Source: Alphaproteobacteria bacterium (GTDB lineage Bacteria > Pseudomonadota > Alphaproteobacteria > CAAGCB01 > CAG-977). From it: a stretch of 64,000 bases of DNA. Below the pieces are notes generated by a model that was not told where the DNA came from, made no database searches, and saw only the letters and a list, made by a program, of their open reading frames with translations. Below are positions 1,013 to 49,396 of the stretch, in pieces. The first letter of the stretch is position 1. Every line of letters starts with the position of its first letter. The translations under genes were made by a program, and so were the position numbers. The stretch spans positions 474,433 to 538,432 of the forward strand of contig CAAGEP010000003.1 in NCBI GenBank assembly GCA_900768875.1. The letters are read 5' to 3'.

Positions 1013-1039
1013 CACACTCCTGCGGCAAGGAGAAAAAAC

Positions 1040-3877: not shown

Positions 3878-3883
3878 TTCGTT

Positions 3884-4969: not shown

Positions 4970-4972
4970 AGC

Positions 4973-8609: not shown

Positions 8610-8612
8610 GCT

Positions 8613-11310: not shown

Positions 11311-11321
11311 AGGATGATTTT

Positions 11322-12575: not shown

Positions 12576-12675
12576 AGACTTTTCGGATACAATCAGTCCA
12601 GTATTATATCGATACAGCCCTTAAAAGCGCAGAAATCCGCCGATTCGGGGTTGCTTTATTTAAACGGAGAAGTCC

Positions 12676-14328: not shown

Positions 14329-14458
14329 GCCGTTATCTCTTTGAAAACTTAATGAAAAGTAAATGTAACAAACTGTAACAAAGCTTGATTTGAAATCCGT
14401 CCCGTTCATTGCTAAACCTTAAGATAGAAGTTTAACCCGTACAAAGGGGGACAGGATA

Positions 14459-18732: not shown

Positions 18733-21161
18733 TTTCCCTCCACAATGTGTTTTACTTTTTCGCTTAAATCCCGCAGGCTGAACGGCTTTGCCATAAAATG
18801 AAAATCGGGCATTTCGCCGATATCGCCGCGGGCGGCTTCCTCGGAAAAACCGGAAATCAGCAGAATTTTGGAATACACGCCGTCTTGGCGCAGTTTGTTC
18901 GCCAACGCCACGCCGTCCATCCCCGGCATGACCATATCCGTAATCAGCAAATCGAATGTCTGCCCTTCGCCCACTTTTTCCAAAGCTTCCTCGGCGCAAG
19001 TGCAGTCAACCACCGTATAGCCTTTGGCGGTCAAAGCGCGTTTGGTTACCGCGCGCACGCCGTCTTCGTCTTCGACCAACAGGATAACGCCCGACCCCGT
19101 CAAATCGGGCGCGGGCAAAGGCGGCGGCAAAGCCGGCTTGTCCGAAGCGAATGAAAACGTCAGCTGATCGCCCGCTTTGGGCGCATCGGGTTTGACCCGC
19201 ACGAATTCCGCCACCGCTTTGGCTTTCTGCAAACGCTGCGCCTGTTCCGCGGTTTGGTCGGATTCTTCGGTCAGGCGGCGGACTTCTTCGGACGAATGGC
19301 GCGGCAGGTAAATACTGAACGTCGTTCCCGCACCGACGGTGCTTTTCACGTTGATATAGCCTCCCGACTGGCGAATGTTGCCGTACACCATCGCCAACCC
19401 CAGTCCCGTTCCCGAATCGACGCCGCCCGATTTTGTTGAAAAGAACGGTTCGAAAATCCTTTGCAGGTTTTCTTCGCTGATGCCGCACCCCGTATCGGAA
19501 ATGTCGATAACGACGTATTCGCCGGGCATGACTTCCTCGGAACCGATGTACTGTCCCGCGGGAATCCGCTGAAACCGCGTGCGAATGGCAAAGGTTCCGC
19601 CGTCGGGCATCGCGTCGCGCGCATTGACCGCCAAGTTGACGAACACTTGATCGAACTGCGTTTTGTCCACGCGGATAAAGCCCAAATTCCGCCCGTGGTC
19701 GATTTGAATGACGGTCTTTGTCCCCAGCAGGCGGCGCAGCATGAATTGAAGCTCTGCAAAAATATCGGTTACATCCAAGTATTTCGGACGCAACGGCTGT
19801 TTGCGCGAATAAGACAACAACTGACCGACCAGACTTGCCGCGCGAGTCGCGCTGTATTGAATGTTTTTAAGCTCCGTAAAGTCGGGGTCGGACGCGGGGT
19901 GCGACTGCAGCAAAAGCTCAGTCGAACCGATAATCGCGGTTAAGAGGTTGTTGAAATCGTGAGCGATGCCGCCCGCCAACTGTCCGATTGCCTGCATTTT
20001 TTGGGCTTGAGAAAACTGAATCGACAGGTTTCGGCGTTCCGTATTGTCGATAAAGTGCGCAATAAAGCCGAACACGTCGGGCTTGCCGTCCTCATCGTCT
20101 TCGGTCATCGGAGTAATGTAAACGGCGGCATACTTTTCGGTTTCGGAGCTCAGTTTGACTTCGGCATGGGCGCGGGACAGCTGAGCCATCATAACCTTTG
20201 CCATTTTGTCCTTCAGTTCCGCCCAATCGTCGGTATCGATGCAGTCTTCCAGCTTTGTGCCGACCAGTTCTTCGCGCGTTTTGCCCGTCAGCTGGAACAA
20301 AATCGAGTTCGCTTCGGTAATCACGCCGTCCTTGTCCACGAAAGCAATACCGACGGGGGCTTCTTCAAACAATCGGGAAAAGCCGACTTCGGCGTCTTTT
20401 GCGCCCTGTTCGTGTTCTTCGCGCGAAGTCACGTCCCGCACGACGGACGCGCGCAGCATCGTTTCACCGTTTTCGTCGTAAACGGCATGGCTGACAAAAG
20501 CCGTGAACGTCCCGCCCGTTTGCGTGCGAAACGTCAGCTCGCCGTGCCAAAATCCGTCCAGTTCGGGAACATGATTTCCCGCCAGCAAATCGACCAGCTT
20601 CCTGCCTTTCAGTTCGCGGGGATTGTTGACGCCCAGCCAGTCGCAAAAGCGGCGGTTGACGAAGTTAATCACGCCGCCCGCGTCGATTTGATACAGTCCG
20701 ATGGGCAAAGCGTCCAGAAATTCCGCCATTTCCTGCGTTTCCTGCCGCATGACGGCATCCATCGCCCTTTGCGCCGTAATGTCGCGCACCCGCCACAGCG
20801 TCCCGACATCCGTTTGACGCAGGGAAACCGAGTACCATTCCCAGAAATCGGCATCGCCGCCTGTGGACTGCATCAGCAGTTCAACCGCCGTTTCGGCTTT
20901 GTTTTTCAAAGCGGCGTCCAGCTTTGCCATCGCCAAGCGGTTGCTGTCTTCGTCGGGCATCAGGCGATCGACGACGGCGGTTCTTAAATCCAGTATGCCG
21001 AAAAAGCTTTTGCCCGCGCGGTTCATGTAAATCAGATCGCCGTCCGTTCCGACCAAAGCCAAAGCGTCGGATTCGCTTTCCATCAATGCCGCCGTTCTGT
21101 CCGCGTCTTTGACATCAAAGCGCAGGGCTTTCGCAATTTTTTTCAAAAAAGACTGCGGCAT
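18729..21161 (-). CDS. Cytoplasmic hybrid sensor histidine kinase, CckA-like, with PAS-PAS-HisKA-HATPase-REC architecture.
   Basis: 810 aa. The H-box is QLAGGIAHDFNNLLTAIIG. The C-terminal receiver is LLVEDEDGVRAV...DLLITDMVMPGMDG. There is no N-terminal TM segment. It is translationally coupled to flhB, with zero gap. Confidence 0.7.
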   Translation of the reverse strand: MPQSFLKKIAKALRFDVKDADRTAALMESESDALALVGTDGDLIYMNRAGKSFFGILDLRTAVVDRLMPDEDSNRLAMAKLDAALKNKAETAVELLMQSTGGDADFWEWYSVSLRQTDVGTLWRVRDITAQRAMDAVMRQETQEMAEFLDALPIGLYQIDAGGVINFVNRRFCDWLGVNNPRELKGRKLVDLLAGNHVPELDGFWHGELTFRTQTGGTFTAFVSHAVYDENGETMLRASVVRDVTSREEHEQGAKDAEVGFSRLFEEAPVGIAFVDKDGVITEANSILFQLTGKTREELVGTKLEDCIDTDDWAELKDKMAKVMMAQLSRAHAEVKLSSETEKYAAVYITPMTEDDEDGKPDVFGFIAHFIDNTERRNLSIQFSQAQKMQAIGQLAGGIAHDFNNLLTAIIGSTELLLQSHPASDPDFTELKNIQYSATRAASLVGQLLSYSRKQPLRPKYLDVTDIFAELQFMLRRLLGTKTVIQIDHGRNLGFIRVDKTQFDQVFVNLAVNARDAMPDGGTFAIRTRFQRIPAGQYIGSEEVMPGEYVVIDISDTGCGISEENLQRIFEPFFSTKSGGVDSGTGLGLAMVYGNIRQSGGYINVKSTVGAGTTFSIYLPRHSSEEVRRLTEESDQTAEQAQRLQKAKAVAEFVRVKPDAPKAGDQLTFSFASDKPALPPPLPAPDLTGSGVILLVEDEDGVRAVTKRALTAKGYTVVDCTCAEEALEKVGEGQTFDLLITDMVMPGMDGVALANKLRQDGVYSKILLISGFSEEAARGDIGEMPDFHFMAKPFSLRDLSEKVKHIVEGK

Positions 21162-24558: not shown

Positions 24559-24573
24559 TTAAGAAAAAGTGAA
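24559..24573. promoter_or_regulatory. Possible CtrA-type site (TTAA-N7-TGAA, one mismatch) 38 bp upstream of flgB.
   Basis: ttaa-gaaaaag-tgaa. The consensus is TTAA-N7-TTAA. Confidence 0.2.
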
Positions 24574-24722
24574 TCTTTTTCCCACCTTGTCAGCTTTGCA
24601 AGAACCGTGCCGATTCCAGATTGCCCGCTTTTCGCCCGAAATGCAAAGATTTTTCTTTTCCGCGCGCTTTTTAAAGCGTACAACCCGAAACACCTTTTCA
24701 TTTTAAAACGGAGTTTTGAAAA

Positions 24723-35410: not shown

Positions 35411-37689
35411 CGCGCGCTCCTTTTGAATTCGGCGATGTATTCATCCAGCAACGGCGTTGTTTCGACAATTTGATTCCACGGCAGAGATCCGTGAACCAAC
35501 ACGCGCACCGTTGCAGGCTTCCACCAATCGGGATATTCGGATTCGGGCAGGCGGTACGGCTGAAAAGATGCCATACCGGCAGGCAAGCGGGTGAATTCGT
35601 CAATAACGGCTTGGTCGAAGTTATCGTATTCGGCATCCGTTTCGGCGTTTTTCATATTGACGCCGCCCAAATACGATCCCGCAAAATTTACATTGCGCAA
35701 ATCGGCGTTTTCCAAATCGGCCAGCCGCAAATCCGTTTGCGACAAATCGATTGGATGTCCCAAATCCCGACGGATTCTTTTATCCGTCAACGCCTTCAAA
35801 GCCAAAGCCACATCGTCCGTCATCGGCTCTATCGGTTTGAACAAATCGGTCTGCGCCGACCAATGCCGCTGCTGTCTGACATATTCGGCCAAAATGTCCG
35901 CCGCGGCATTTTCCAGTTTTTCATCGCGCGCCGCCAAACACCCCAACGTGCAGATTGCCCACAGCCTGTCGTTCATTTCCGCCGGAGGATTGGCCAGCAA
36001 AGTCATCGCCCTTACCGCCATATTTTGGCCGCCGGATTTGCCCAAAAGCACGTCTTCGCACGCCGAACGGGAGCATTGGAACGGCTTGTTTTTCCACTTT
36101 TGACGATACAGGCGTTCATCGTAAGCCGCCGAATCAAAGTCGGGGAAATTTTTGGGCGGCAAAGTTTTTTTGTCAATGACGACGCGTCGGATTTCGTTTA
36201 AAGGCACGTCGGAAACAGCTGAAATATCCGCCCCGCCGAAATCGGCTTTGTAAAACACCGCATTGCCAAATATCAGATTGCCTTTGAAAACGGCTTTTCT
36301 GAAATCGGCGCGCGTCAAAACGGCATAATCCAAGTACGCATTGTCGAAAACGGCTTTGTAAAAAATCGATTGTTCAAAAGACACGCTTTTCATGTAGCAA
36401 TTCACACAGGTTACCTGCGTAAAATCCGCTTTGTTGGCGACAGCACCGTCCAGCACGACGTTGTCGAATACGGCCTGCCGAGCTTGAACATTGTCCATGT
36501 TCAGCCGGTAGGCCATGACATCCTGCCACGCGGTGTTGGCAATATTGGCGTCTTTCACGGACGAAAACGTTAAAACTGCATCGCGGAACTGCGTATTGCT
36601 TAAATCGGCTCCGTCAAAATTCGCCAGCGACGCATCAACGGAATGTAAATGTGAAAAGCGCATTTTCGCGCCTTTGAAAAAAGATTTTGACAGGTTGACG
36701 CCTTTGAACAGAACATCGTCCAATTCCGCCCCGTAAAACAAAGCTTCCGAAAAATCGGAATTCAAAAAATAAGCCCCTTTGAAAAAGGAATTTGAAAAAT
36801 TGTTGCCGGCCATTGTTCCTTGGGCGAACTCGGCCTTTTCAAAGTTGACATGCGACAAATCCAACGCATCGCATTTTTCTTTGCCGTAAACGGCTTCTGC
36901 GATTTCGACGCTTTTCTGCATATTGATATTTCTGCGGACGTCGTTGTTTGTCGGCGTGTAGTAGGGAGCCGGCCACGGATGGCATTTGCGCAAATAATCC
37001 GACACGGCCTGTTTCGCGGAACAGACCGTCCGGCCGTTGCTCAGATTATCCGTTGACATCAGCCAGTGCAAAGTCGAAAGAACGTCCGTCATATCGTCTT
37101 TACATTCTTTCAATTCGCCAAACGCCCACTCCGTCCATTCGCTTTTATCCTGCGGCCGCTTGTTTTCGGCAACGACGGGGGGCGTCAAACGGGCGTACGG
37201 CGCAAACGGAAGCGGACGGATTTTTGCTTCGGCTTTGACGGCTTTGACGGGGTTTTTCAAGGGATAAATTCTGACCTGCACGGGATTGGCTTCAGCCGCA
37301 GGTTTTGAAAAAAGTTTCGACTTGCGTTTCGTTTTCAGTGTTTCCGGCGGCAAAATCATCACCTTGGCGGGACTGAGAACCGCATCGACGGCTTGGTTGT
37401 TCGTCCACTTTGCCGGCTTGTCGTACAAAGAAACGCCGACCGTCGCATCCATACCGTGCGGATTGGGCTTGAGCGCGGAATCCGACGGCAAAGTGTTTGT
37501 TACCGCGCTGGTCAAAGTCCCCGAACGCGTCGGTGTTGTTTTGGATTCATGGAGGGAGTCCGTATGCGCCAAATCGGACACGGGCAAAAAAAACACCACG
37601 ACGTTTTTCGGCACGGCGGCGGCGATAACGGCAGACGACAGCAACGCCCCGCCGATTGACAGCCCCAGTTTTTTAAACTTTTTTGACAT
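35407..37689 (-). CDS. Large pentapeptide-repeat protein with a signal peptide.
   Basis: 760 aa. N-terminal signal peptide or anchor. A central run of about 40 pentapeptide repeats (ANFDGADLSNTQFRDAVLTF...) and a second short run near the C-terminus. Overlaps the Sel1 gene by 4 nt. Confidence 0.75.
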   Translation of the reverse strand: MSKKFKKLGLSIGGALLSSAVIAAAVPKNVVVFFLPVSDLAHTDSLHESKTTPTRSGTLTSAVTNTLPSDSALKPNPHGMDATVGVSLYDKPAKWTNNQAVDAVLSPAKVMILPPETLKTKRKSKLFSKPAAEANPVQVRIYPLKNPVKAVKAEAKIRPLPFAPYARLTPPVVAENKRPQDKSEWTEWAFGELKECKDDMTDVLSTLHWLMSTDNLSNGRTVCSAKQAVSDYLRKCHPWPAPYYTPTNNDVRRNINMQKSVEIAEAVYGKEKCDALDLSHVNFEKAEFAQGTMAGNNFSNSFFKGAYFLNSDFSEALFYGAELDDVLFKGVNLSKSFFKGAKMRFSHLHSVDASLANFDGADLSNTQFRDAVLTFSSVKDANIANTAWQDVMAYRLNMDNVQARQAVFDNVVLDGAVANKADFTQVTCVNCYMKSVSFEQSIFYKAVFDNAYLDYAVLTRADFRKAVFKGNLIFGNAVFYKADFGGADISAVSDVPLNEIRRVVIDKKTLPPKNFPDFDSAAYDERLYRQKWKNKPFQCSRSACEDVLLGKSGGQNMAVRAMTLLANPPAEMNDRLWAICTLGCLAARDEKLENAAADILAEYVRQQRHWSAQTDLFKPIEPMTDDVALALKALTDKRIRRDLGHPIDLSQTDLRLADLENADLRNVNFAGSYLGGVNMKNAETDAEYDNFDQAVIDEFTRLPAGMASFQPYRLPESEYPDWWKPATVRVLVHGSLPWNQIVETTPLLDEYIAEFKRSAR

Positions 37690-38224: not shown

Positions 38225-39574
38225 ATGTCACAGGACGCGATTACCGTCGTCGGGGGCGGATTGGCGGGCAGCGAAGCCGCTTGGCAGATAGCGAAAGCGG
38301 GGATTCCCGTTGTTTTAAAGGAAATGCGCCCCGTCAAGCAAACACCCGCGCACCGTACGGACGGGCTGGCGGAACTGGTGTGTTCAAACTCTTTAAGATC
38401 CGACGACGCGATACATAACGCCGTCGGTTTGCTGCACGAAGAAATGCGCCGCTGCGATTCGCTGATTATGCGCGCCGCCGATTTGAACAAAGTTCCCGCG
38501 GGCGGAGCTTTGGCGGTCGACCGCGACGCTTTTTCCAAAACAATCGGGGAAGCTCTCGCCAACCACCCGCTTGTAACAATCAAGCGCGAGGAAATGACCG
38601 AACTGCCCGCCCCCGATTCGGGCAAGTACGTCATTGCGACGGGACCGTTGACTTCGGCAAGTCTGGCGGAACAAATCCAAGCCGTCGCGGGCGGGGATAT
38701 TCTGCATTTTTTCGACGCCATCGCGCCGATTGTCACCGCCGATTCGGTCGATATGACCAAAGCGTGGAAGCAATCCCGCTACGACAAAGGCGACGGCGAC
38801 GACTATATCAACTGTCCCTTGGACGAAGAAGAGTACAACGCCTTTATCGACAACCTGCTGTCGGGGGAAAAGGTCGCGTTCAAAGACTGGGAGAAAAACA
38901 CGCCCTACTTCGAGGGCTGCCTGCCGATTGAAGTCATGGCGGAACGCGGACGGGAAACGCTGGCGTTCGGACCGATGAAGCCTGTCGGCTTGATGAATCC
39001 GCACACGGGCAAGCGTCCTTACGCCGTCGTCCAGCTGAGAAAAGAAAACAAGCAGGGAACTTTGCTGAATCTGGTCGGTTTTCAAACAAAGCTGGTGTAC
39101 GGCGAACAAAAGCGAATCTTTAAAACGATTCCCGGACTGGAAAACGCAGAATTTGTGCGCTTGGGCGGAATTCACCGCAACACGTTCATTCACTCGCCGA
39201 CCGTTTTGGACGGAACTTTACGGCTGAAAGCACGCCCGAACCTGCGCTTTGCAGGACAAGTCACGGGGTGTGAAGGCTACGTCGAAAGCGCGGCGGTCGG
39301 ACTGATGGCGGGATTGTTCGCCGCATGGGAAACGCAGGGCAAGGAAATCGTCCCGCCGCCGATTGAAACGGCGCTGGGCGCAATGCTGAACCACATCACC
39401 GTATCGGCGGAAAGCGATTTGTTCCAGCCGATGAACATCAACTTCGGATTGATGCCGCCCCCGCCCGTCCCCGAAGGCAAACGCAAAATCAAAGGGCTTG
39501 ACCGCAAACGCGCGCAAAGCGAACGGGCGACCGCCGCGCTGACACAATGGCTTGAACAGGCAGGTTTGAAATGA
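38225..39574 (+). CDS. trmFO: Methylenetetrahydrofolate--tRNA-(uracil54-C5)-methyltransferase TrmFO.
   Basis: 449 aa. FAD-binding N-terminus [17 protein letters not shown]. The length and motifs are TrmFO/Gid-like. Confidence 0.85.
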
Positions 39575-40449
39575 CGCACGACATCAAACGCACCAAAGAC
39601 GCCAACGGTGAAAACTTTCCCGTCGGATCTTGCTTAATTCCGGCGAAACTGCGCCCGCACGTCATGGCTTTTTACGACTACGCCCGCACGGCGGACGACG
39701 TTGCGGATTCCGATTTGCCGCGCATGGAAAAGCTCAGACGCCTTGACGCTTTGGAAGCCGTCCTGCGCGGACTGCGCGACGCGGACGAGGACACAAAGTG
39801 CGCCGAAACCCTGCGCAACAGCTTGGAGGAAACGGGTGTTACAAACCAGCACGCTTTGGATTTGCTCAAAGCGTTCCGGCAAGACGCCATCGGCTTCACC
39901 TACAAAACATGGGAAGACGTTATGGCGTACTGCCGCAATTCGGCGGGCAGCGTCGGGCGTTACATGCTGGATTTGCACGGTGAAAACCCGTCGGCGTATT
40001 GGCCTTCGGATGCTTTATGCGCCGCCTTGCAGCTGAACAACCACCTGCAGGATTGCCAAGACGACTATCAGAACCGCCAGCGCGTTTACATCCCGCGCGA
40101 CTGGTTCAGCGACGAAAAAATCAAATACGAAGCTTTAAGCGACAGCATTACCTGCGATGCCTTGCGCCGCGTGTTCGACCGTATGGCGGCGGCAATCGAC
40201 AGCCTGCTGGTCGAAAGCTCGCCTCTGCCCCTTGTCATTCGGCACAGAGGGCTGAGAATGGAAGTCTGCGTCATCTACCGTTTGGCGCAAAGACTGTTGA
40301 AAAAACTGAAAAAACGCGACATCTTGAAACGCAAAGTCGCTTTGGAAAAAACGGACTGGGTGCTGGCGGGAACGCGCGGCATTTTGGACGGACTGACACG
40401 AAAGAAAATCAAATGCCTGAAAAAACAAGACCTCTTGCCGCCGAAGTAG
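39571..40449 (+). CDS. hpnC: Squalene/phytoene-synthase family enzyme HpnC (hydroxysqualene synthase).
   Basis: 292 aa with the ENFPVGS motif, the [10 protein letters not shown] Asp-rich motif and a second Asp-rich motif. First gene of the hpnCDE trio. Confidence 0.75.
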
Positions 40450-41279
40450 AATCCGTCGTTAAACGGTCGGGCAGCTCGTTTTACTGGGCGATGCGGCTGT
40501 TGGGCAAACAAAAGCGCGACGCCATGTTTGCGATTTACGCGTTTTGCCGTGAAATCGACGACATCGCCGACGAACCCGCTTTATTGGAACAAAAGCGGCA
40601 GGCTTTGCAAGTTTGGCGCGACGATTTGGATAAAATCTATGCGGGCGGACAGCCGACGCAAAGAATCGCCGAAGCCTTGATTGAACCCGTTAAAACGTTT
40701 GCCTTGCCCAAAGACGAGTTTATCGCCTTGATTGACGGTATGGAAATGGACATTCCCGACGGCATGCGCGCGCCGACGATGACCGAGCTTCAGCTGTACT
40801 GCCGCCGCGTTGCGGGGGCGGTCGGGATGCTGTCCGTGTGCGTGTTCGGCGACTTTTCCGAAACGGCGCAAAGATTCGCGATTACTTTGGGCGAAGCTTT
40901 GCAGTTGACCAACATCCTGCGCGATATGGACGAAGATATGGAGCTGGGGCGACTGTATATGCCCAAGGAATGTCTGGACAAAGCGGGCATTGCCGTCACC
41001 GACGACACGCATTTAAGCGACATTTTGAACCACCCGAATCTGGGTGTCGCCCGCGCGGCTTTGGCGGAACAAGCCCTGCTCCGCTACGCCGAAGCGGATG
41101 CCGCTTTGGAAAAGCTGAACGCCAAGCAGATGAAACCCGCCGTGATTATGAAAGCCGCCTACCGCAAAATCTTTGACGCGATGCAAAAACGCGGCTGGAG
41201 CGTTGTGCGTCCGCGCATCAAAACACCTAAATCAACGCTGTTGCTGACGGCTTTGCGCATTTGGCTGATTGGCAGGTAA
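40413..41279 (+). CDS. hpnD: Presqualene diphosphate synthase HpnD.
   Basis: The ATG at 40413 gives a 288-aa protein ([30 protein letters not shown]...FCREIDDIAD). The ORF track's 426-aa call from 39999 is an out-of-context extension overlapping hpnC. Confidence 0.75.
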   Translation: MPEKTRPLAAEVESVVKRSGSSFYWAMRLLGKQKRDAMFAIYAFCREIDDIADEPALLEQKRQALQVWRDDLDKIYAGGQPTQRIAEALIEPVKTFALPKDEFIALIDGMEMDIPDGMRAPTMTELQLYCRRVAGAVGMLSVCVFGDFSETAQRFAITLGEALQLTNILRDMDEDMELGRLYMPKECLDKAGIAVTDDTHLSDILNHPNLGVARAALAEQALLRYAEADAALEKLNAKQMKPAVIMKAAYRKIFDAMQKRGWSVVRPRIKTPKSTLLLTALRIWLIGR

Positions 41280-41282
41280 GCC

Positions 41283-42314
41283 ATGACCGTATACGTCATC
41301 GGCGCAGGCATGGCGGGGCTGAGCGCGGCTTTTCACGCCTGCAAAGCGGGACATCACGTCGTTGTTTTGGAATCCTCCAACCACGCGGGCGGACGGTGCT
41401 ATTCCTATTTGGACAAGGAATGGAACCGCCTGTTGGACAACGGCACGCACTTGATGCTGGGGGCGAACACCGCTTTGCTGGAAATCCTGCGCCAATGCCC
41501 GACGGAAACACCGCTAAAGCCGATTGGGTCAAGCTTGACGTTTTACCGCCGCAACCTCGGCTGTTTTACGGTGGATTTGAATCACCCGCTCAAAGCGTTG
41601 CTTCACCTGCCCGAATTGTACAAACTGCTGGCGGAATCCGTGCTGAACACCCCTGCGAAACAAGCGGACAAAGCCCTTTTGTTCAAAACGGCGCGCCTGT
41701 GCTTTTCGGCGCGGGACAAGCAAATCTATCTGGCGAATCCGTCGCTGAAGCAATCCGTCGTCGACCCGATTTACAATTATCTGAAAGACAAGGTCGAATT
41801 CTACTTCAGCCACCCCGCCCGCGGGTTCGAGATTGACCGTATTTTGTCTGATTCCGTCGATTTTCTGATTTCGCCCGATGACAAAATCATTTCGACCGTT
41901 CCGCCGAAAAAAGCCGAATTCGGCACAATCGTCAACATCCATTACAAGACGGACGCGACTTTGCCTGACGGTTTGCCTGTTGTCGGATTGATTGGCATGC
42001 TGCCGCATTGGGTGTTTTGTCAAAACGGAATCGTGTCCGTAACCATCAGCGCGGCGAACGGTTTGAATACCGCAGACATTGCGGAACGGGTTTGGGATGA
42101 ACTTTGCCCTTTGCTTCATTCGCTGGACAGCACGCCGCCGAACCGCGTCATCATCGACCGGCGTGCGACCTTGCTGCAAACGCGCAAGACCAAACGTCCC
42201 TCCGCCGATTCCGAATTCGGATTGATTTTGGCGGGCGACGGCACAAAAACGGGATTGCCCTGCACGATAGAAAGCGCGGTGCGTTCCGGAAAAACGGCGG
42301 CAAACCTGCTCTGA
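41283..42314 (+). CDS. hpnE: FAD-dependent amine-oxidase-like hydroxysqualene dehydroxylase HpnE.
   Basis: 343 aa. GxGxxG motif (VIGAGMAGLSAA...LESSNHAGGR). Follows hpnD. Confidence 0.7.
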   Translation: MTVYVIGAGMAGLSAAFHACKAGHHVVVLESSNHAGGRCYSYLDKEWNRLLDNGTHLMLGANTALLEILRQCPTETPLKPIGSSLTFYRRNLGCFTVDLNHPLKALLHLPELYKLLAESVLNTPAKQADKALLFKTARLCFSARDKQIYLANPSLKQSVVDPIYNYLKDKVEFYFSHPARGFEIDRILSDSVDFLISPDDKIISTVPPKKAEFGTIVNIHYKTDATLPDGLPVVGLIGMLPHWVFCQNGIVSVTISAANGLNTADIAERVWDELCPLLHSLDSTPPNRVIIDRRATLLQTRKTKRPSADSEFGLILAGDGTKTGLPCTIESAVRSGKTAANLL

Positions 42315-42371: not shown

Positions 42372-42980
42372 ATGGCTTTTGAACTGCCTGTTTTACCCTA
42401 TGCCAAAAACGCGCTTGAGCCGTTTATTTCGGAACAAACGCTGGATTTTCATTACGGCAAGCATCATCAAACATACATTGCGAATTTGAACAACTTGATT
42501 CGCAACACGGCTTTGGCGAACAAAACGCTGGAACAAATCGTCCGCGAAACGGCGGACAAGCCCGACAAATCGGCGATTTTCAACAATGCGGCGCAAAGCT
42601 TCAATCACACGTTTTACTGGAACAGCCTGCGCCCGAACGGCGACGGCAGAATCCCCGAAAGCACGTTCAAAGCCGCCGTTTTAAAAACGTTCGGCGGGGC
42701 TGAAAGCTTGAAAGCCGAATTGAAATCGGCCGCTTTGTCCCAATTCGGCAGCGGGTGGGCGTGGCTGATTGCGGACAAAGGCGCGCTGAAAATCACCAAA
42801 ACGGCAAACGCGGACACGCCGGCGGCGCACGGACAAACGCCGCTGCTGACCATTGATGTTTGGGAACACGCGTATTATCTGGATTATCAAAACAAGCGCG
42901 CCGATTACGTCCAAGCGATTATCGACAACCTGCTGAACTGGGATTTTGCGGCATCGAATTTCAGTTCATCCGACAAATGA
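42372..42980 (+). CDS. sodB: Fe/Mn superoxide dismutase.
   Basis: 202 aa with Fe/Mn-SOD signatures (HHxKHH...DVWEHAYY). Confidence 0.85.
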   Translation: MAFELPVLPYAKNALEPFISEQTLDFHYGKHHQTYIANLNNLIRNTALANKTLEQIVRETADKPDKSAIFNNAAQSFNHTFYWNSLRPNGDGRIPESTFKAAVLKTFGGAESLKAELKSAALSQFGSGWAWLIADKGALKITKTANADTPAAHGQTPLLTIDVWEHAYYLDYQNKRADYVQAIIDNLLNWDFAASNFSSSDK

Positions 42981-43544
42981 AAACCGTTTGCCGTCCCATT
43001 CCAGACAAAAGGGCGTTCCGTGCGGGACTTGCGGATATTTTTGCCCGAATGCCAGCAGAGTGCAACGAATGGCGGCACTGTGTCCCGATATGCCGATGCG
43101 ATCGCAAGGGTGATTTTCGGCAATGTCCGTCAAAGCGGCCAACCAGCGGGTCTGGATTTGCCGCTTTGTTTCGCCGTTCGGAAAGCACACGTCCATGTCA
43201 CAGGCTTCCAAGCTTTCCCACCGCGGAGCGATGTCCGGAAACAGAGCATAAATTTCGTAAATGGTTTTACCCTCTGCCGCACCGAAGCATCCTTCGACTA
43301 ACCCGCCGCACTTCGTTACGGGAACATTGATTTTACGGGCAACGATTTTTGCGGTCTGCACGGCGCGCAACAAAGGCGACGTGAATATCGCTTGAATTCC
43401 AGCGGAAACCAGCCTGTCGGCCAGATTTTCAGCCTGCCGCACGCCCGTTTCATTCAGCGGCGCGTTAATCAGCCGTCCCTGCCAACGGCGTTCGGCGTTC
43501 ATATCGGTTTGCCCGTGACGAAACAAATAAAACAGTTTTTTCAT
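42966..43544 (-). CDS. Histidine phosphatase (phosphoglycerate mutase-like) family protein.
   Basis: 192 aa with the RHGQT catalytic motif at the N-terminus. Confidence 0.65.
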   Translation of the reverse strand: MKKLFYLFRHGQTDMNAERRWQGRLINAPLNETGVRQAENLADRLVSAGIQAIFTSPLLRAVQTAKIVARKINVPVTKCGGLVEGCFGAAEGKTIYEIYALFPDIAPRWESLEACDMDVCFPNGETKRQIQTRWLAALTDIAENHPCDRIGISGHSAAIRCTLLAFGQKYPQVPHGTPFCLEWDGKRFSFVG

Positions 43545-43556
43545 CGTTATACGATT

Positions 43557-43572
43557 TTAATTGTTTATTAAC
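43557..43572. promoter_or_regulatory. Perfect CtrA-type box TTAA-N7-TTAAC, 56 bp upstream of the Cys-rich protein gene.
   Basis: ttaa-ttgttta-ttaac. It is also part of the inverted repeat TTAAT...ATTAA. Confidence 0.35.
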
Positions 43573-43627
43573 ACCCGAAGTTATGCCATACTGTAGAATC
43601 ATAGTAAATATTTTTCGGAGGCATCTC

Positions 43628-45766
43628 ATGCGAAAATTTATTCTTTGCCTTATCGTTTTGTGTTGGTCGGCGGGGACTTCCGCCGCCGTGCTGAATGATG
43701 CGGACGCGTTTGTCATCGCGCGCAGTGCAAAGCTGGGCGAAATGGAGGACAGCTTTTCCTCCGGCAAACAGGTCACCAAAAAAATCGGCTGCGCTCCGGG
43801 GGAAGCCGATTGCGTCGGTCCGACCTTGTGCAAAACGGATTCCCAGTGCAAAGATGACGAATACTGCTCCGTCATCAAACAATGCACGAAGCTGTGTTCG
43901 GGCGGTGTCAATTCGGATGGGGAAAAATGTTCGGATTACCCGCGCATGCCCGAATGTACGCCCACAAAAAACGGGCATAAATCCTACTGCGCCTGCACGG
44001 ACACGTCTTGCGGCACAGGGTGGAAATGTGCTGAACAAAACGGCATAAAGCAGTGCGTTATCTGTTCCGCGGGCGAAGCATGCGGATGTCCCGATGGCAA
44101 AATGTCCAACGGCAAAGGCGGTTGCGGCGGCTGCAACACGAATGAAGATTGCGCGGGCAACGAAACCTGCGCGGATGCGGGAACGACCGAAGCCGAATGT
44201 AAAACGATAACATGCCCCGACGGAACTTTCCCCAAGGATCACGACTGCGTCAAATGCAGCGCGCTGGATGCGAACTGTCTGGAATGTTCGGAAACGCAAT
44301 GCGTCACGTGTCTGCCCGCCTATGATTTGGTTGACGGGAAATGCGTGCTGAAAACGTGTCCCGACGGCCAGTATCTGGACGAACTTACCGGCACATGCAA
44401 TCCGTGCGGCGCGGGATGCAAAAAATGCACATCGGCCGACGTCTGTACGGAATGTGAAAGCGCTTATGATTTGGAAAACGGCGCATGCAAAACCAAAAAC
44501 TGCGGCGACGGCATGTATTTGAATATGGAAACGGGCGAATGTCTGTCCTGTTCCGCGGAATGTGCGACATGCACGAACGTTGCGAACGACGGTGAAACGT
44601 CGCAGTGCATCACCTGCGCCGACGGTTATCACATGGCGGACGGCGTTTGCGTTGCGAACGGATGCGCGGATATGAAGCTGGCGACCGAATGTGGCGCCAA
44701 TCAAATCAAAACCGACGCGGGTGTGGCAACCAACGGGGAACAGTGCTGGTCCTGCGCAGACCCCGAACCCGAATGTCGCAAGGATACGGATTGCGACAGC
44801 ACGCAGAAATGTTCGCCGGACGGTGAATGTGTGCTGAAAACATGCGCGGAAATGGGGTATGAAAAGACCTGCTCCGCGGGCTATTTGAAAAACGAAGCCG
44901 CGGTCGGTTCGGACGGCATGTGCTACACCTGCCAGAACCCTGCAAAAGACTGCCCCGCGGACAAACCCGCGTGGGACGGCAAAAAATGCGTTCAATGCAC
45001 CGCAAACAGCCATTGCGAAAGCTTTGAATACTGCAAAGATAATCAGTGCGTCCTGCAGGCGGGTAAATGCTATACCAGCAATGATTGCCAGTATAACGAT
45101 TATTGCAAAGACCATTCCTGTGTTCCTGCCTGTGACCCGAATCCGTGTTCCGGTAAAACTCCCAGATGCGCAGTTTACAGCAGCCACACAGCAAAATGCA
45201 CCTGCACTCCAAGCCCCGATTCTTGCGGCGCAGGATACAACTGCGTTAATAGCGGCGGATATAACTGCAAACCGACAACGTGTTCATCTGACGACGATTG
45301 CGATCACGACAAAGCTTGCAAGAACGGGAAATGCGTGGATCCTTGCGATCCGAACCCGTGTTCCGGTAAAACTCCCAGATGCGCAGTTTACAGTAACCAC
45401 ACAGCAAAATGCACCTGCACTCCAAGCCCCGATTCTTGCGGCGCAGGATACAACTGCGTTAATAGCGGCGGATTCAACTGCAAACCGACAACGTGTTCAT
45501 CTGACGACGATTGCGATCAATCCAAAGCTTGCAAGAACGGGAAATGCGTGGATCCTTGCGATCCGAACCCGTGTTCCGGCGAACAGCCACGCTGCGGCAG
45601 CGGCAGTCACCGTGCTAAATGTTATTGCACATCAACCAGTTGTCCGGCCGGATACGTTTGCGACGGTGCGAGCTGCAAAATGAAAACAACGGAAAAATGC
45701 ACGACGGACGACGATTGTTCGGCGGACAAAAAATGCTCCGACGGTTATTGCGTCTACCGCGAATAA
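43628..45766 (+). CDS. Secreted, extremely cysteine-rich repeat protein (furin-like/VSP-like CxxC modules plus EGF/EB-like modules). Eukaryote-like.
   Basis: The ATG at 43628 follows a GGAGG Shine-Dalgarno. Signal peptide MRKFILCLIVLCWSAGTSAA. The 712-aa protein is about 15% Cys. Recurring motifs: C-x2-C...TC-x-xG-YL and DPNPCSGKTPRC. Confidence 0.7.
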   Translation: MRKFILCLIVLCWSAGTSAAVLNDADAFVIARSAKLGEMEDSFSSGKQVTKKIGCAPGEADCVGPTLCKTDSQCKDDEYCSVIKQCTKLCSGGVNSDGEKCSDYPRMPECTPTKNGHKSYCACTDTSCGTGWKCAEQNGIKQCVICSAGEACGCPDGKMSNGKGGCGGCNTNEDCAGNETCADAGTTEAECKTITCPDGTFPKDHDCVKCSALDANCLECSETQCVTCLPAYDLVDGKCVLKTCPDGQYLDELTGTCNPCGAGCKKCTSADVCTECESAYDLENGACKTKNCGDGMYLNMETGECLSCSAECATCTNVANDGETSQCITCADGYHMADGVCVANGCADMKLATECGANQIKTDAGVATNGEQCWSCADPEPECRKDTDCDSTQKCSPDGECVLKTCAEMGYEKTCSAGYLKNEAAVGSDGMCYTCQNPAKDCPADKPAWDGKKCVQCTANSHCESFEYCKDNQCVLQAGKCYTSNDCQYNDYCKDHSCVPACDPNPCSGKTPRCAVYSSHTAKCTCTPSPDSCGAGYNCVNSGGYNCKPTTCSSDDDCDHDKACKNGKCVDPCDPNPCSGKTPRCAVYSNHTAKCTCTPSPDSCGAGYNCVNSGGFNCKPTTCSSDDDCDQSKACKNGKCVDPCDPNPCSGEQPRCGSGSHRAKCYCTSTSCPAGYVCDGASCKMKTTEKCTTDDDCSADKKCSDGYCVYRE
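45134..45580 (+). repeat. 213-bp (71-aa) tandem repeat inside the Cys-rich gene: two near-identical copies plus the start of a third.
   Basis: Copies begin at 45134, 45347 and 45560. Copies 1 and 2 differ at only a handful of nucleotides. Confidence 0.8.
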
Positions 45767-45781
45767 AATCCTACCCTGCGG

Positions 45782-45811
45782 AAAAAGCGGCCTTTCGGCC
45801 GCTTTTTTTTA
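45782..45811 (+). terminator. Rho-independent terminator of the Cys-rich gene.
   Basis: aaagcggcc-tttc-ggccgcttt followed by a T8 run. Confidence 0.7.
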
Positions 45812-46010: not shown

Positions 46011-48602
46011 TTAAACGATTCCTTCGTAAGCCTTCAAGTAGATTTCCTTGATTTCCTTGAACAAAGGATAACGGGGGTTGGCGCCCGTGCACTGGTCGTC
46101 AAACGCCATTTCCACCAGTTCGTCCAACTTGGCGTTAAAGTCTTCTTCTTTAATGCCGTAATCGCGGATGGACAGAGGAATGTTGACTTCTTTCTTCAAG
46201 TTCGTCAGCGCCTGCAGCAGCAATTCCAACTTTTCGTCGTCGTTTTTGCCGCCCAATTTCAGAGCGTTGGCAATCTGACCGTACTTTTCTTTCGCATTGG
46301 GGTATTTGTACTGAGCGAAAGCCGCCTGTTTGACAGGGCGGTCGCTTGCGTTGAAGCGAATGACCTGACACAGCAGCAACGCATTCGCGATACCGTGCGG
46401 AATGTTGAACGCGGCGCCCAGTTTATGCGCCATCGAATGGCACAATCCCAAGAACGCGTTAGCAAAAGCCATACCCGCCAGCGTGGACGCATAGTGCATC
46501 TTTTCGCGGGCAATCGGGTCGTTTTTGCCGTTTTTGTAGGAACGCGGCAGGTATTTGTAAACCTTTTTCGCGGCTTCCAAAGCGTTCGAGTTCGTGAAGT
46601 TCGTCGCCATAATGGAAACGTAAGCTTCAATCGCGTGAACAATCGCGTCATAACCCGAAGCGGCGCACAGTCCCGGCGGCATCGTGTCGACCAAGTTCGC
46701 GTCGACAATCGCCATGGACGGGGTCAGCGCATAGTCCGCCAACGGATATTTGATGTGGGTTTTGTCGTCGGTAATAACCGCGAACGGCGTTACTTCGGAA
46801 CCCGTACCGGACGTCGTCGGAATGGCAACCATGGACGCTTTTGCACCCAAAGCGGGCAAATCGCAAATTCTCTTGCGGATATCCATAAAGCGCATGGCGA
46901 CGTCTTCGAACTTGATTTCGGGTTGTTCGTACATCAGCCACATGACTTTGCACGCGTCAATCGGCGAACCGCCGCCTAGCGCGATAAAGCAATCGGGTTC
47001 GTACGTTTTGACCATCATCATCGCGTCGTTAATCGTCGACAGGGTGGGGTCGGGCTTCACGTCAAAGAAAATCTGGTAATCCGTTCCGATTTCGTCCAAA
47101 ACGCGCGTGATGTTGTTCACGGCACCCGAATTGAACAGGAAGCGGTCGGTTACGATAAAGGCGCGTTTTTTGCCTTTCAGTTCGCGCAAAGCGTAGTCCA
47201 TCGACCCGCGTTTGAAATAAATCTTGGGCGGTACTTTATACCACAGCATATTTTCTCTCCTTTCGGCGACGGTTTTGATGTTCAACAGGTGCTTCGGACC
47301 AACGTTTTCGCTGGTGGCGTTGCCGCCCCACGAACCGCAGCCGATGGTCAGCGTCGGGTTCAGTTTGAAGTTGAACAAATCGCCGATGGCGCCCTGCGCC
47401 GCGGGGGAGTTGATTAAAATGCGGCCGGTATGGATTTTGTTGCCGAACGCGTTGATTCTGTCGGTCTTTCTTTCGTCCGTGTACAGAACGGAAGTATGAC
47501 CCGCGCCGCCGTGATCGACCAGCGTGTAGGCTTTTTCCATCGCGTCTTCAAAGTCTTTGGCGCGGTACAGAGCCAAAACGGGCGACAGTTTTTCGTGCGC
47601 GAACGGTTCTGCGGTCGTCGTGTCTTCGACTTCGCCAATCAGAACCTTTGTTTCTTCGGGAACTTCGATTCCCGCCATTTCCGCGATTTTATAAGCGGGC
47701 TGACCGACAATCGCGGGGTTTACGCCGCGCGGGGTCAACAGAATGGCGGCGACTTTTTCGCGTTCCTGTTCATTCAGAATGTATGCGCCGCGGAATTCAA
47801 ATTCCTTGCGGACGGCTTCGTACACTTCGTCAACCGCGATAACGGATTGTTCGGACGCGCAAATCATGCCGTTGTCGAACGTTTTGCTCAGCAGAATCGA
47901 GGAAACAGCCATTTGAATGTCGGCAGTTTCGTCAATGACCGCGGGCGTATTGCCGGGACCGACGCCCAAAGCGGGCTTGCCCGAAGAATAAGCGGCTTTG
48001 ACCATGCCGGGGCCGCCCGTCGCCAGAATGATGTCAACCTTGGGGTGTTTCATCAGCATATCGGACAATTCGATGGTCGGTTCGTCAATCCAGCCGATGA
48101 TTCCTTCCGGAGCGCCGGCTTTGACCGCGGCTTCCAAGCACAGCTTGGCGGCGGCGATGGTGCTTTTCTTGGCGCGGGGGTGCGGCGAAAAGACAATGGC
48201 GTTGCGCGTTTTCAGCGCAATCAGAGTTTTGAAAATGGCTGTGGAAGTCGGGTTCGTCGTCGGAACGATGCCTGCGATAACGCCGATGGGTTCGGCGATT
48301 TTTTTGATACCGCCGGCTTTGTCTTCTTCGATGACGCCGCAGGTTTTCATATTTCTGTATTTGTTATAGATGTATTCGGACGCGAAGTGGTTTTTAATCA
48401 CCTTGTCTTCCATAACGCCCATTCCCGTTTCTTCGGCAGCCATCTGCGCCAAAGGAATACGGGCTTTGTTAGCCGCCAACGCGACTTCACGGAAAATCTT
48501 GTCCACCTGTTCCTGCGTGTACGAAGCGTATTTCGCCTGTGCTTCGTGCGCTTTGGTAATGACGGCCTCAAGATCCTCTGCGGTTCTGACTTCGTTTTCC
48601 AT
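46011..48602 (-). CDS. adhE: Bifunctional acetaldehyde-CoA/alcohol dehydrogenase AdhE.
   Basis: 863 aa. N-terminal ALDH domain and C-terminal Fe-ADH domain. The N-terminus is typical of AdhE. Confidence 0.9.
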   Translation of the reverse strand: MENEVRTAEDLEAVITKAHEAQAKYASYTQEQVDKIFREVALAANKARIPLAQMAAEETGMGVMEDKVIKNHFASEYIYNKYRNMKTCGVIEEDKAGGIKKIAEPIGVIAGIVPTTNPTSTAIFKTLIALKTRNAIVFSPHPRAKKSTIAAAKLCLEAAVKAGAPEGIIGWIDEPTIELSDMLMKHPKVDIILATGGPGMVKAAYSSGKPALGVGPGNTPAVIDETADIQMAVSSILLSKTFDNGMICASEQSVIAVDEVYEAVRKEFEFRGAYILNEQEREKVAAILLTPRGVNPAIVGQPAYKIAEMAGIEVPEETKVLIGEVEDTTTAEPFAHEKLSPVLALYRAKDFEDAMEKAYTLVDHGGAGHTSVLYTDERKTDRINAFGNKIHTGRILINSPAAQGAIGDLFNFKLNPTLTIGCGSWGGNATSENVGPKHLLNIKTVAERRENMLWYKVPPKIYFKRGSMDYALRELKGKKRAFIVTDRFLFNSGAVNNITRVLDEIGTDYQIFFDVKPDPTLSTINDAMMMVKTYEPDCFIALGGGSPIDACKVMWLMYEQPEIKFEDVAMRFMDIRKRICDLPALGAKASMVAIPTTSGTGSEVTPFAVITDDKTHIKYPLADYALTPSMAIVDANLVDTMPPGLCAASGYDAIVHAIEAYVSIMATNFTNSNALEAAKKVYKYLPRSYKNGKNDPIAREKMHYASTLAGMAFANAFLGLCHSMAHKLGAAFNIPHGIANALLLCQVIRFNASDRPVKQAAFAQYKYPNAKEKYGQIANALKLGGKNDDEKLELLLQALTNLKKEVNIPLSIRDYGIKEEDFNAKLDELVEMAFDDQCTGANPRYPLFKEIKEIYLKAYEGIV

Positions 48603-48634
48603 TGTTCCCTCTGATAGTAAACTGTTTGGGTTAA

Positions 48635-48652
48635 TCGTGATTTATTTCACAG
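48635..48652. promoter_or_regulatory. Putative Rex operator (TGTGA-N6-TCACA type) in the adhE/rex divergent intergenic region.
   Basis: tcGTGAtttattTCACag, starting 33 bp upstream of the adhE start. Confidence 0.5.
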
Positions 48653-48781
48653 TTTTCTATATAATCGAATCGCCCCCAAAAATCAAGCACTTTTCTAAAA
48701 ACCGTCCGAAAAATCTTTCGGTCTGGATTTTTGTGAAAAACCCTTTTATGATTGAGTCGAAAAAATTCAAGGAATTATGTT

Positions 48782-49396
48782 ATGAATCAGCCTCTTTCCG
48801 AAAAAGTGTACGCCCGTCTGACGCAATATCACAGCTTGCTGATTGAATATATCGAAGACGGCATCCCCACCATTTCCAGCCCTCAAATCGCCGTTCGACT
48901 GGGTGTGGACGATTCGCAGGTGCGCAAGGATTTCAAGCTGCTGAACAATGAAGGGCGCGGACGCGTCGGATACGACGTGCAGGCGCTCAAAGAATCGATT
49001 GAAGACACGCTCGGCTTTCAAATCGTCAAAAACGCGGTCATCATCGGCGCGGGGCATCTGGGCATGGCTTTGGCGAACTATTCCGCGTTCAGCGACTACG
49101 GACTGAACATTCTGGCATTATTCGACAGCGCGCCCGAAAAGGTCGGCACGGCGGTCAACGGCAAACCGATTTACCCTGTTTCCCGCCTGTCCGAAATGGC
49201 GCGCGAATCCCAAGCCGACATCGCCATTCTGACCGTTCCGCGCGCGTTCGCGCAAAAAGTCGCCGACGATTTGGTCAAAGCCGACTTTAAATATATCTGG
49301 AACTTCACGCCCGCGATTTTGAAAGTCCCCGACGGCATCAAAGTCCGCAACGAAAACCTTGTCGCGGGCTTTTTGCAGTTCGCGAATCAGGACTGA
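48782..49396 (+). CDS. rex: Redox-sensing transcriptional repressor Rex.
   Basis: 204 aa from the ATG at 48782. N-terminal winged helix and Rossmann fold (IIGAGHLGMALANY). Divergent from adhE. Confidence 0.8.
   Translation: MNQPLSEKVYARLTQYHSLLIEYIEDGIPTISSPQIAVRLGVDDSQVRKDFKLLNNEGRGRVGYDVQALKESIEDTLGFQIVKNAVIIGAGHLGMALANYSAFSDYGLNILALFDSAPEKVGTAVNGKPIYPVSRLSEMARESQADIAILTVPRAFAQKVADDLVKADFKYIWNFTPAILKVPDGIKVRNENLVAGFLQFANQD

Follow-up and report, generated by a model that had tools for sequence, protein, structure and literature searches.

We analysed a 64,000-nucleotide stretch of contig CAAGEP010000003.1 from an alphaproteobacterium (referred to throughout as the window), in which a gene on the forward strand, starting at position 43628, encodes a secreted-type protein unusually rich in cysteine. 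Two findings are new: the C-terminal part of this protein varies within a species, and its cassettes are shared between species. The explanation that we favour, with a probability of roughly 0.55 for the whole, is that the product is a Sec-exported rod of disulfide knots with a variable, recombining C-terminus, that it would be exposed at the cell surface and that its expression would be coupled to CtrA. Within this explanation, disulfide formation, surface exposure, the selective agent and actual binding of CtrA are what we infer.

Variation of the C-terminal units

The variable part of the gene is the following segment:

45080-45730, forward strand: hypervariable, recombining segment (approximately residues 485-700), strain-specific, with cassette types common to other species

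Three contigs of the same species (L035, L036 and L038) carry flanking genes that are 98.6-99.7% identical to the window at the nucleotide level. Over codons 1-350 of the Cys-rich gene they are 98.7-99.5% identical to it, and the last ~215 codons align in pieces only, at 77-83%. In protein sequence, same-species alleles are 98% identical in the N-terminal part and 59-65% identical in the C-terminal part; identity within the species stays at 98-99% over the flanks and residues 1-480. Among 44 close homologues, pairwise identity lies at 0.9-1.0 up to residue 475, at 0.28-0.43 in residues 526-600 and at 0.99 in the last 12 residues. An earlier interpretation of the DNA letters alone (the sequence-only reading) had raised rapid evolution as a possibility, and for the C-terminal third this is now strongly supported.

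The C-terminal part is built of units of 12 cysteines, which cluster into discrete classes. One species contains at least seven unit architectures: CCA (the allele in the window), CA, ABA, BBD, BBA, JA and KH. A second species contains GGH, BBD and TUV, and unit classes recur across species. The BBD alleles of two species, sp1 and sp3, are 48% identical in the N-terminal part of the protein and 80% identical in the C-terminal part; the corresponding DNA is 61% identical in the N-terminal part (48% at third positions, which are saturated) and 86% in the C-terminal part (79% at third positions). A sliding comparison of this pair places residues 517-651 at 88-96% nucleotide identity over a background of 50-70%, with the adjacent phosphatase gene at 70%. 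Because the cassette is so similar over a far lower background, these nucleotide comparisons indicate that it was replaced laterally, and recently, between species. Ancient balanced polymorphism was ruled out for the pair by near-identity at synonymous sites. An assembly chimera was rejected as well, the sp1 and sp3 copies being 88-96% rather than 100% identical and each being present on several contigs.

Whole units are also lost or gained. A common allele of 641 residues equals the window allele minus exactly one unit, the outcome that would be expected from recombination within a tandem repeat; units 1 and 2 of the window allele form a 213-bp tandem DNA repeat (45137-45579) whose copies are 96% identical. 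All Cys columns are kept within the C-terminal units. The non-synonymous ratio is 0.51 in the Cys-rich gene, compared with 0.30-0.37 in the flanking genes. Sharp differences between strains combined with swapping between species make up the pattern that would be expected of an exposed, variable surface protein.

Homopolymer tracts were observed in paralogs of the gene from three assemblies, in each case at the junction of signal peptide and mature protein: C11 in L007 (5880-5890), C11 in L047 (1488-1498) and G12 in L009 (6024-6035). In the L007/L047 paralog the tract lies between the signal peptide and a conserved LDDxxSF motif. Both C11 tracts are out of frame as assembled, and the frame is restored by 10 or 13 Cs in L007 and by 9 or 12 Cs in L047. 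The G12 tract occupies the same position in a different paralog and is in frame. Since these are the only G or C runs of at least 8 in ~240 kb of clade DNA, their placement is non-random. Tracts placed after the signal peptide are typical of contingency genes for exposed proteins in Neisseria, Campylobacter and Helicobacter, and those found here look like candidate phase-variation switches. The paralog bearing C11 adjoins fliJ-fliI and ctrA (L006, L007), lying immediately beyond fliJ and convergent to it.

The parallel with these organisms extends to gene organisation. Phase-variable and mosaic surface-protein genes of host-adapted bacteria, for example Neisseria Opa and PilE and the poly-G/C contingency genes of Campylobacter and Helicobacter, are matched here by paralogs with tracts in the 5′ coding region and by a gene that joins a conserved scaffold to hypervariable, recombining segments, putatively exposed, whose alleles are shared between species. 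The Neisseria-type proteins, however, are beta-barrels or pilins, whereas the window protein would be a disulfide-knot rod, and the window contains neither a silent cassette nor a second paralog.

Two other accounts of the variability were weighed. The protein could be a periplasmic or envelope component with a structural, redox-buffering or metal-binding role, in which case variability would reflect relaxed constraint and repeat instability. The raised non-synonymous ratio, a 96%-identical repeat that is prone to slippage and the lack of a recognisable surface-anchoring or secretion signal beyond Sec are all compatible with such a role. Relaxed constraint nevertheless leaves unexplained why a cassette should keep 88-96% identity between species whose background is 60-70%, why several species should have discrete allele classes in common and why the homopolymer tracts of paralogs should sit precisely where the signal peptide ends, and it is at odds with the conservation of every Cys column within the units; we consider this account unlikely. 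Alternatively, the protein could act as an effector, as polymorphic toxins or bacteriocins do, delivered by its conserved N-terminal part and killing through its variable C-terminal domain, since a conserved-N/variable-C layout with laterally exchanged C-terminal parts is a hallmark of such toxins. Here, though, the C-terminal variants are all of the same kind of 12-Cys structural unit, with no distinct enzymatic domains, and the extreme C-terminal 35 residues are conserved. Downstream of the gene there is no immunity-like open reading frame (ORF), only a terminator at 20 nt, a 245-bp spacer and the convergent adhE. No secretion-system genes lie nearby, and no PADLOC or toxin-directed search was made. 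A toxin is in our view highly improbable, and a variable surface protein is retained as the preferred explanation.

The gene and its cysteine-rich modules

The gene and the regions of its product are as follows:

43583-45766, forward strand: program-listed ORF
43618-43622, forward strand: GGAGG, the ribosome-binding site as read from the sequence, 5 nt ahead of the start codon at 43628
43628-45766, forward strand: coding sequence, 712 residues plus stop codon, 14.9% Cys
43628-43687, forward strand: predicted Sec (SPase I-type) signal peptide, residues 1 to ~19/20, ending in MRKFILCLIVLCWSAGTSA before A, from hydropathy and the -3/-1 rule
43688-43789, forward strand: Cys-free conserved leader, residues 21-54, LNDxxAFVIARSxKLGE, conserved in orthologs and paralogs
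43790-44212, forward strand: family-specific N-terminal Cys-rich domain, residues 55-195, with invariant Cys columns in the alignment
44213-44665, forward strand: three putative furin-like (FU) repeats, residues 196-346, 8 Cys each
44666-45130, forward strand: middle Cys-rich region, residues 347-501, three DPY-like 4-Cys mini-modules, with a sub-threshold DUF7107 match
45131-45763, forward strand: three units of 69-71 residues, 12 Cys each, allele architecture C-C-A, residues 502-712
45787-45810, forward strand: putative intrinsic terminator GCGGCC-TTTC-GGCCGC followed by T8, 20 nt past the stop codon, read from the sequence

The ATG at 43628 (MRKF...) is favoured as the biological start because GGAGG lies upstream of it and all orthologs begin with M[KR]K at the corresponding position; the product then has 712 residues. 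The terminator was identified by eye in the sequence and did not appear in the output of the consensus scanner; its position 20 nt after the stop codon points to a monocistronic gene forming its own transcription unit. On one side the gene shares an 83-bp divergent spacer with a histidine-phosphatase gene (42966-43544, reverse strand). On the other, the terminator is followed by a 245-bp spacer, 97-98% conserved and without an ORF, and then by the convergent adhE. Rfam revealed no known RNA element near the gene.

The conserved Cys columns of its homologues (76 clusters, many columns invariant), the excess of third-position substitutions (41/30/70 by codon position against an 87%-identical ortholog from a sister species) and length variants that differ by whole 213-nt (71-residue) units confirmed that the ORF is a real gene and not low-complexity noise. 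A long ORF on the opposite strand had prompted the concern that the gene itself might be an artefact. That concern can be set aside: the 539-residue antisense ORF was rejected as a gene and is explained by codon usage, because the sense gene holds just three TTA, CTA or TCA codons (at residues 553, 624 and 669). The codon-aligned antisense frame is free of stops in all orthologs too.

Cysteine accounts for 106 of the 712 residues, and the 104 that follow the signal peptide are an even number, likely forming ~52 disulfides; Leu, Ile, Phe and Trp are scarce. The signal peptide, judged by rule alone, consists of an MRK n-region, a 10-residue core FILCLIVLCW (Kyte-Doolittle value of up to 3.6 over 9 residues) and a small-x-small site in which TSA is followed by AV, and the same layout is seen in 16 of 16 aligned homologues. 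No further hydrophobic segment is present, the maximum 19-residue Kyte-Doolittle value after residue 25 being 0.75, so the mature protein is predicted to be soluble. A lipoprotein was rejected for the window protein, which has no canonical lipobox. The description of a secreted protein of 712 residues and about 15% Cys in the sequence-only reading is upheld, and the motifs that it quoted, TCPDGQYL, GCKKCTSADVCTEC and repeats of DPNPCSGKTPRCAVYS...CKNGKCVDPC, are all present.

Structure prediction had been proposed as a check, and the AlphaFold2 model is a string of short beta-hairpin modules (mean predicted local distance difference test, pLDDT, 74.6; 82-89 in the FU region). The leader has a pLDDT of 26-37 and is predicted to be disordered; it is possibly a docking or anchoring peptide. 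The domain that follows (residues 55-195) includes two DPY-like C-x5-C-x5-C mini-modules and has no match in Pfam. In the FU region the pattern is C-x2-C-x6-C-x2-C-x4-C-x2-C-x10-C-x4-CPxGxY, with Cys spacings of 2,6,2,4,2,10,4, then 12,2,3,2,5,2,10,4 and 12,2,3,2,11,2,10,4, and the repeats start with C-P/G-D-G-x-[FY] (CPDGTF, CPDGQY and CGDGMY). Each 12-Cys unit consists of an EGF-like part and then a DPY-like module. A 4-Cys mini-module, C-x5-C-x5-C-x4-C and typically [ST]-D-x-D-C-x5-C-x2-G-x-C-V-D-P, occurs eight times in the protein, whose C-terminal end reads ...CSDGYCVYRE.

By structure and profile comparison we identify residues 196-346 as furin-like repeats. The beta-hairpins of the model can be superposed on solved FU repeats, which are ladders of disulfide-linked hairpins, and the repeat-wise Cys spacing shows the paired CxxC and the C-P-x-G-x-[YF] start of this fold. 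The best specific Foldseek match of the region was R-spondin Fu1-Fu2 (probability ~1.0, 25-30% identity). In sequence searches, where the scores of Cys-rich proteins are inflated by composition, the family profile matched R-spondin-2 among PDB sequences (E = 0.0024) and phmmer reached the Cys-rich regions of vertebrate PCSK5 (E down to 5e-33, ~21% of the query). Searches of Pfam and NCBIfam with the whole protein and five fragments returned sub-threshold matches only; for residues 196-346 Pfam gave no furin-like model at threshold, only sub-threshold VSP and DUF4215 matches. Queried with just the FU fragment, a word index gave no match.

These likenesses invite the idea of a host-ligand mimic acquired from a eukaryote, whose FU repeats would engage receptors as R-spondin does with LGR4/5 and ZNRF3/RNF43. 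In its favour are the best solved-structure matches, to R-spondin Fu1-Fu2 at 25-33% identity, the reach of phmmer to PCSK5 and the setting, a gut organism with other eukaryote-like repeat proteins (Ank, Sel1) encoded nearby. The FU repeats of R-spondins, PCSK5/PACE4 and the ErbB and insulin receptors, however, belong to proteins with protease, TSP1 or receptor domains of their own, which the bacterial window protein lacks. Moreover, the receptor-contact Phe residues of R-spondin are not kept: in the profile alignment the Phe pair of CFSKDFC (F106 and F110 of RSPO1), which is needed for LGR binding, aligns with Thr and Val (CTSADVC). Because the FU core is common to every paralog and species, a transfer, if there was one, would date far back, and comparable Cys-rich repeat proteins occur in Myxococcota and in metagenome-assembled genomes (MAGs) of DPANN. 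The lack of a Pfam furin-like model at threshold and the compositional inflation of Cys-rich scores also count against mimicry, which we hold to be quite improbable. Transfer from a eukaryote had been raised in the sequence-only reading as a possibility; a recent transfer is not supported, given the family-wide FU core and the similar repeats in Myxococcota.

Outside the FU region, the 12-Cys unit of the window protein matched Dumpy_DPY (PF21164) with E = 0.0011 and 19.4 bits, under the gathering score of 27. Of 16 family members, 9 were matched by the same model, the best of them with E = 2.3e-5, and one homologue has a precomputed PF21164 match. Dumpy DPY/EGF-like (PF21164), DUF7107 and Dickkopf_N-type modules have in common with the window protein the motif D-x-D-C...K-x-C-x-x-G-x-C-V-D-P-C. 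These families are metazoan extracellular-matrix proteins, and the likeness does not imply a functional link.

A resemblance to variant surface proteins (VSPs) of protozoa had also been proposed. The likeness in furin/EGF module type stands, and VSP membership does not: the Giardia VSP model PF03302 scored 14.6 bits (E = 0.015) against a cut-off of 31.4, and the protein has no C-terminal transmembrane helix and no CRGKA tail. As a system the two are nonetheless alike, both comprising Cys- and CXXC-rich extracellular proteins of a gut organism, in multi-member families whose variability is consistent with immune evasion. Giardia switches epigenetically and by RNA interference among ~200 genes, whereas here diversity lies in strain-allelic cassettes and in the homopolymer tracts of paralogs.

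A tblastn search gave matches of 24-29% identity over most of the protein to Cys-rich repeat proteins of Myxococcota, and weak matches in DPANN MAGs. The Myxococcota proteins are likewise bacterial and secreted and form long disulfide-rich repeat arrays. Unlike them, the window protein lacks a C-terminal sorting tag and has an N-terminal domain specific to the alphaproteobacterial family; a search for the Myxococcus cysteine-rich repeat TIGR02232 gave 0 NCBIfam families, and DUF4215 remained at E = 0.043 and 14.6 bits against 27. A BFVD fold search returned generic EGF-like proteins of giant viruses only. The 'CysRReps' of a 2026 preprint have a different motif and concern a different question.

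Promoter, CtrA-type box and proposed mechanism

Two elements in the divergent spacer may govern expression:

43557-43572, forward strand: perfect CtrA-type box TTAA-TTGTTTA-TTAAC (TTAATTGTTTATTAAC), overlapping the -35 position
43584-43592, forward strand: extended -10-like element TG-C-CATACT (family consensus TTaTGCCAtAAT), from the alignment of orthologous spacers

The core TTAA-N7-TTAA spans 43557-43571, with the extended C at 43572, and 55 nt separate the box from the ATG. With its end 12 nt upstream of the extended -10 element's TG, the box overlaps the -35 position, which is the place expected for an activator. The promoter role of 43584-43592 is suggested by its sequence; the consensus scanner did not call it. 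The TTaTGCCAtAAT element is kept upstream of all orthologs and occurs upstream of several paralogs, as seen in the upstream sequences of L002-L005, L012 and L043-L045, and in the window, L001-L004, L037, L043 and L044 it is conserved together with an AGTAAA block in the leader (43604-43609). Motifs resembling TGCCAnAAT were also observed upstream of paralogs, sometimes in three copies (L005, L045). These motifs may form a family-specific promoter or operator element.

The box is the only perfect TTAA-N7-TTAA in the window. It is identical in the same-species contigs L035, L036, L038 and L042 and in L001, L040 and L041 of a sister species (76%-identical protein), where the bases on both sides of it have diverged. 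CtrA signalling is represented in the lineage. The window encodes CckA (18729-21161, reverse strand; E = 2.4e-180, below the equivalog cut-off) just downstream of flgB-flgC-fliE-fliQ-fliR-flhB, in an operon running from 24521 down to 18729 on the reverse strand. The ctrA gene of the window's own genome lies outside the window; CtrA is encoded in two sister genomes, L006 and L007 (NF045991; 393 bits, with the cut-off at 350), where its gene is divergent from fliI-fliJ. Upstream of that ctrA (3793-4479 in L006), 30-44 nt from the start codon, stands a perfect TTAATAAGCTGTTAA (L006 3749-3763; L007 10568-10582), identical in the two species. In L012, an AT-rich spacer upstream of a uvrC-like gene (9185-9521) holds two perfect boxes (9306 and 9403) and two DnaA-box-like TTATCCACA sequences, and it resembles a Caulobacter-type chromosomal origin. 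Altogether ~170 kb of clade DNA contains five independent perfect boxes, and three of the five fall at classical CtrA targets, namely ctrA itself (one) and the origin-like spacer (two), the box consensus and target classes being those described previously (PMC6847485, PMC2877005). CtrA-activated alphaproteobacterial promoters carry the same perfect TTAA-N7-TTAA(C) at -35 (PMC6847485, PMC2877005); compared with those known, the present case would be a new target class, with the box in two close species only.

Further CtrA-like sites with one mismatch were observed in the leader downstream of the flgB promoter (24559-24573), just upstream of ftsZ (12561-12575), between ftsZ and lpxC (14349-14363) and in the adhE/rex divergent spacer (48631-48645), in numbers not above chance.

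The favoured mechanism can be set out as follows. The protein would be exported by Sec, oxidised in the periplasm to form ~52 disulfides and then exposed at or beyond the cell surface. Its conserved N-terminal half, made up of the disordered leader, the family-specific domain and the three FU repeats, would act as scaffold and attachment, and the leader may dock to a partner in the envelope. Specificity or antigenicity would be determined by the exposed part, the two to three 12-Cys units at the C-terminus, which would face ligand or antibody. Duplication and deletion of units, and homologous replacement with cassettes that move between species, would maintain their diversity under diversifying selection by host immunoglobulin A (IgA), phage or a binding partner, and slippage in homopolymer tracts may in addition turn some paralogs on and off. 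In this and the sister species, the CtrA box, which fills the -35 region of an extended -10 promoter, would probably couple expression to the CckA-CtrA programme of cell cycle and motility.

Several observations weigh against this explanation. Neither an outer-membrane anchor nor an autotransporter was found, nor a sorting tag or a secretion gene next to the Cys-rich gene. Forming some 52 disulfides in an anaerobe-like organism (AdhE, Rex) would call for a Dsb system, of which the window showed no sign. Nor is there, in the window gene and its promoter, any homopolymer run of at least 8, the feature of a contingency gene, and homopolymer lengths in short-read MAGs are error-prone. As for the box, one-mismatch sites are not enriched in the window (11 found, 17 expected), the perfect box is absent from L002, L003, L004, L037, L043 and L044, which represent three more distant species, and 16 identical bases in a spacer of 88% identity would arise by chance in ~13% of cases (0.88^16).

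The box points lead to the strongest competing view, that the match is a fortuitous part of the AT-rich -35/UP region of an ordinary sigma-70 extended -10 promoter and that the gene lies outside the CtrA regulon. Besides the shortfall of one-mismatch sites, 0.75 perfect boxes are expected in the window and 52 of 100 shuffles hold at least one. The box also lies in a region where an 8-bp indel removes it from the three distant species, the orthologs at 52% and 41% identity keeping only the TGCCATAAT element, and the flagellar operon of the window has no full box and uses a sigma-54-type promoter, GGCACG-N4-TTGCA (24597-24611, reverse strand), ahead of flgB (24521). Set against these points, only 0.17 boxes are expected in the intergenic DNA of the window and the composition-based probability of one in the 83-bp spacer is 0.010; three of the five independent clade boxes lie at ctrA or the origin-like region; and the extended TTAAC is present at a site that fits an activator touching RNA polymerase. 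A fortuitous box is a serious contender that falls somewhat short of even odds, and we rate the chance that the box is a functional CtrA site, judged from its sequence context, at a little over one half. The CtrA control proposed in the sequence-only reading is favoured by the perfect box and by the presence of CckA and CtrA in the lineage; against it, the statistics are weak and distant orthologs lack the box. CtrA control of the Cys-rich gene is plausible.

Distribution, genomic neighbourhood and significance

Among 1.84 billion proteins, residues 1-195 match only 29 representatives (clusters at 50% identity), and the named family members come from "Alphaproteobacteria bacterium" MAGs. The family is thus tiny, in keeping with the earlier remark that such a protein is unusual for a bacterium, and no description of it was found in the searchable literature. 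A scan of species-representative genomes placed close relatives only in gut Alphaproteobacteria MAGs (UBA6411, HGM16787, UBA2903 and UBA3864), with 2-3 paralogs per genome, and source records include human stool metagenomes, for example from the Hadza. One more relative came from a bin labelled Limosilactobacillus gorillae whose contigs are alphaproteobacterial. The contigs L003 and L007 of this assembly (CAVCSV01) hold ctrA, fliI and the syntenic phosphatase/Cys-rich pair, and the bin appears mislabelled or contaminated. Phage, plasmid and IMG/VR collections contained no relatives, in searches whose sensitivity the BLAST low-complexity filter may lower; nothing thus points to a mobile element as carrier of the cassettes. 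The family is small, paralogous and confined to uncultured, flagellated gut Alphaproteobacteria.

In the distant relative L018 (UBA3864), three adjacent Cys-rich genes (12-14% Cys) were observed at 1725-5849, 5911-7032 and 7127-7705, one of them with a lipoprotein-type LLAAC signal. Judging by this signal, some relatives may be lipid-anchored.

Elsewhere in the window, four paralogs of the DUF6782 putative metallopeptidase lie on the reverse strand (16940-17890, 28035-30116, 30129-31157 and 31303-32340; E 1e-47 to 1e-85), none with an NCBIfam name and three of them in tandem. Eukaryote-like repeat proteins cluster by a tRNA-Met gene (34415-34492), with ankyrin, Sel1 and a 760-residue pentapeptide-repeat protein encoded at 33806-34207 (forward strand), 34550-35410 (reverse) and 35407-37689 (reverse); a repertoire of ankyrin, Sel1 and pentapeptide repeats is typical of host-associated bacteria. 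A fused MurE-MurF of 945 residues (1040-3877, forward strand), matching NF008896 end to end with 888 bits, below the cut-off of 1023, is encoded within a dcw cluster that is standard in other respects (ftsI ... ftsQ-ftsA-ftsZ, 29-14277). The hopanoid/squalene genes hpnC-hpnD-hpnE and the genes for Fe-SOD, AdhE and Rex stand side by side (39571-42314, 42372-42980 and 46011-49396), a gene content that suggests a fermentative, oxygen-tolerant gut lifestyle.

A broader reading, which we put forward tentatively and think rather doubtful, is that the family constitutes an undescribed bacterial system of variable surface proteins made of eukaryote-type furin/EGF/DPY modules, a counterpart of the VSP-like coats of protozoa. 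Such a system would have three levels of diversity, namely gain and loss of units, replacement of cassettes across species boundaries and homopolymer phase variation in paralogs, and at least one member wired to CtrA, and its variable C-terminal tips would attach to mucosa or a eukaryotic partner while evading IgA or phage.

In this family a module type seldom found in bacteria is joined to a known evolutionary strategy, that of phase-variable and mosaic exposed proteins. Furin/EGF-type modules are regarded as essentially eukaryotic, and here they have apparently been recruited by bacteria for an exposed protein that varies across a population. If the CtrA link is true, the conserved cell-cycle regulon of a host-associated anaerobe would take in targets of a new class. 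The clade is uncultured and its interaction with the host is almost uncharacterised. With strain-specific, laterally exchanged tips and putatively phase-variable paralogs, the secreted Cys-rich family is a prime candidate for a molecule of interaction or evasion, and it would also be a useful marker for typing strains in metagenomes.

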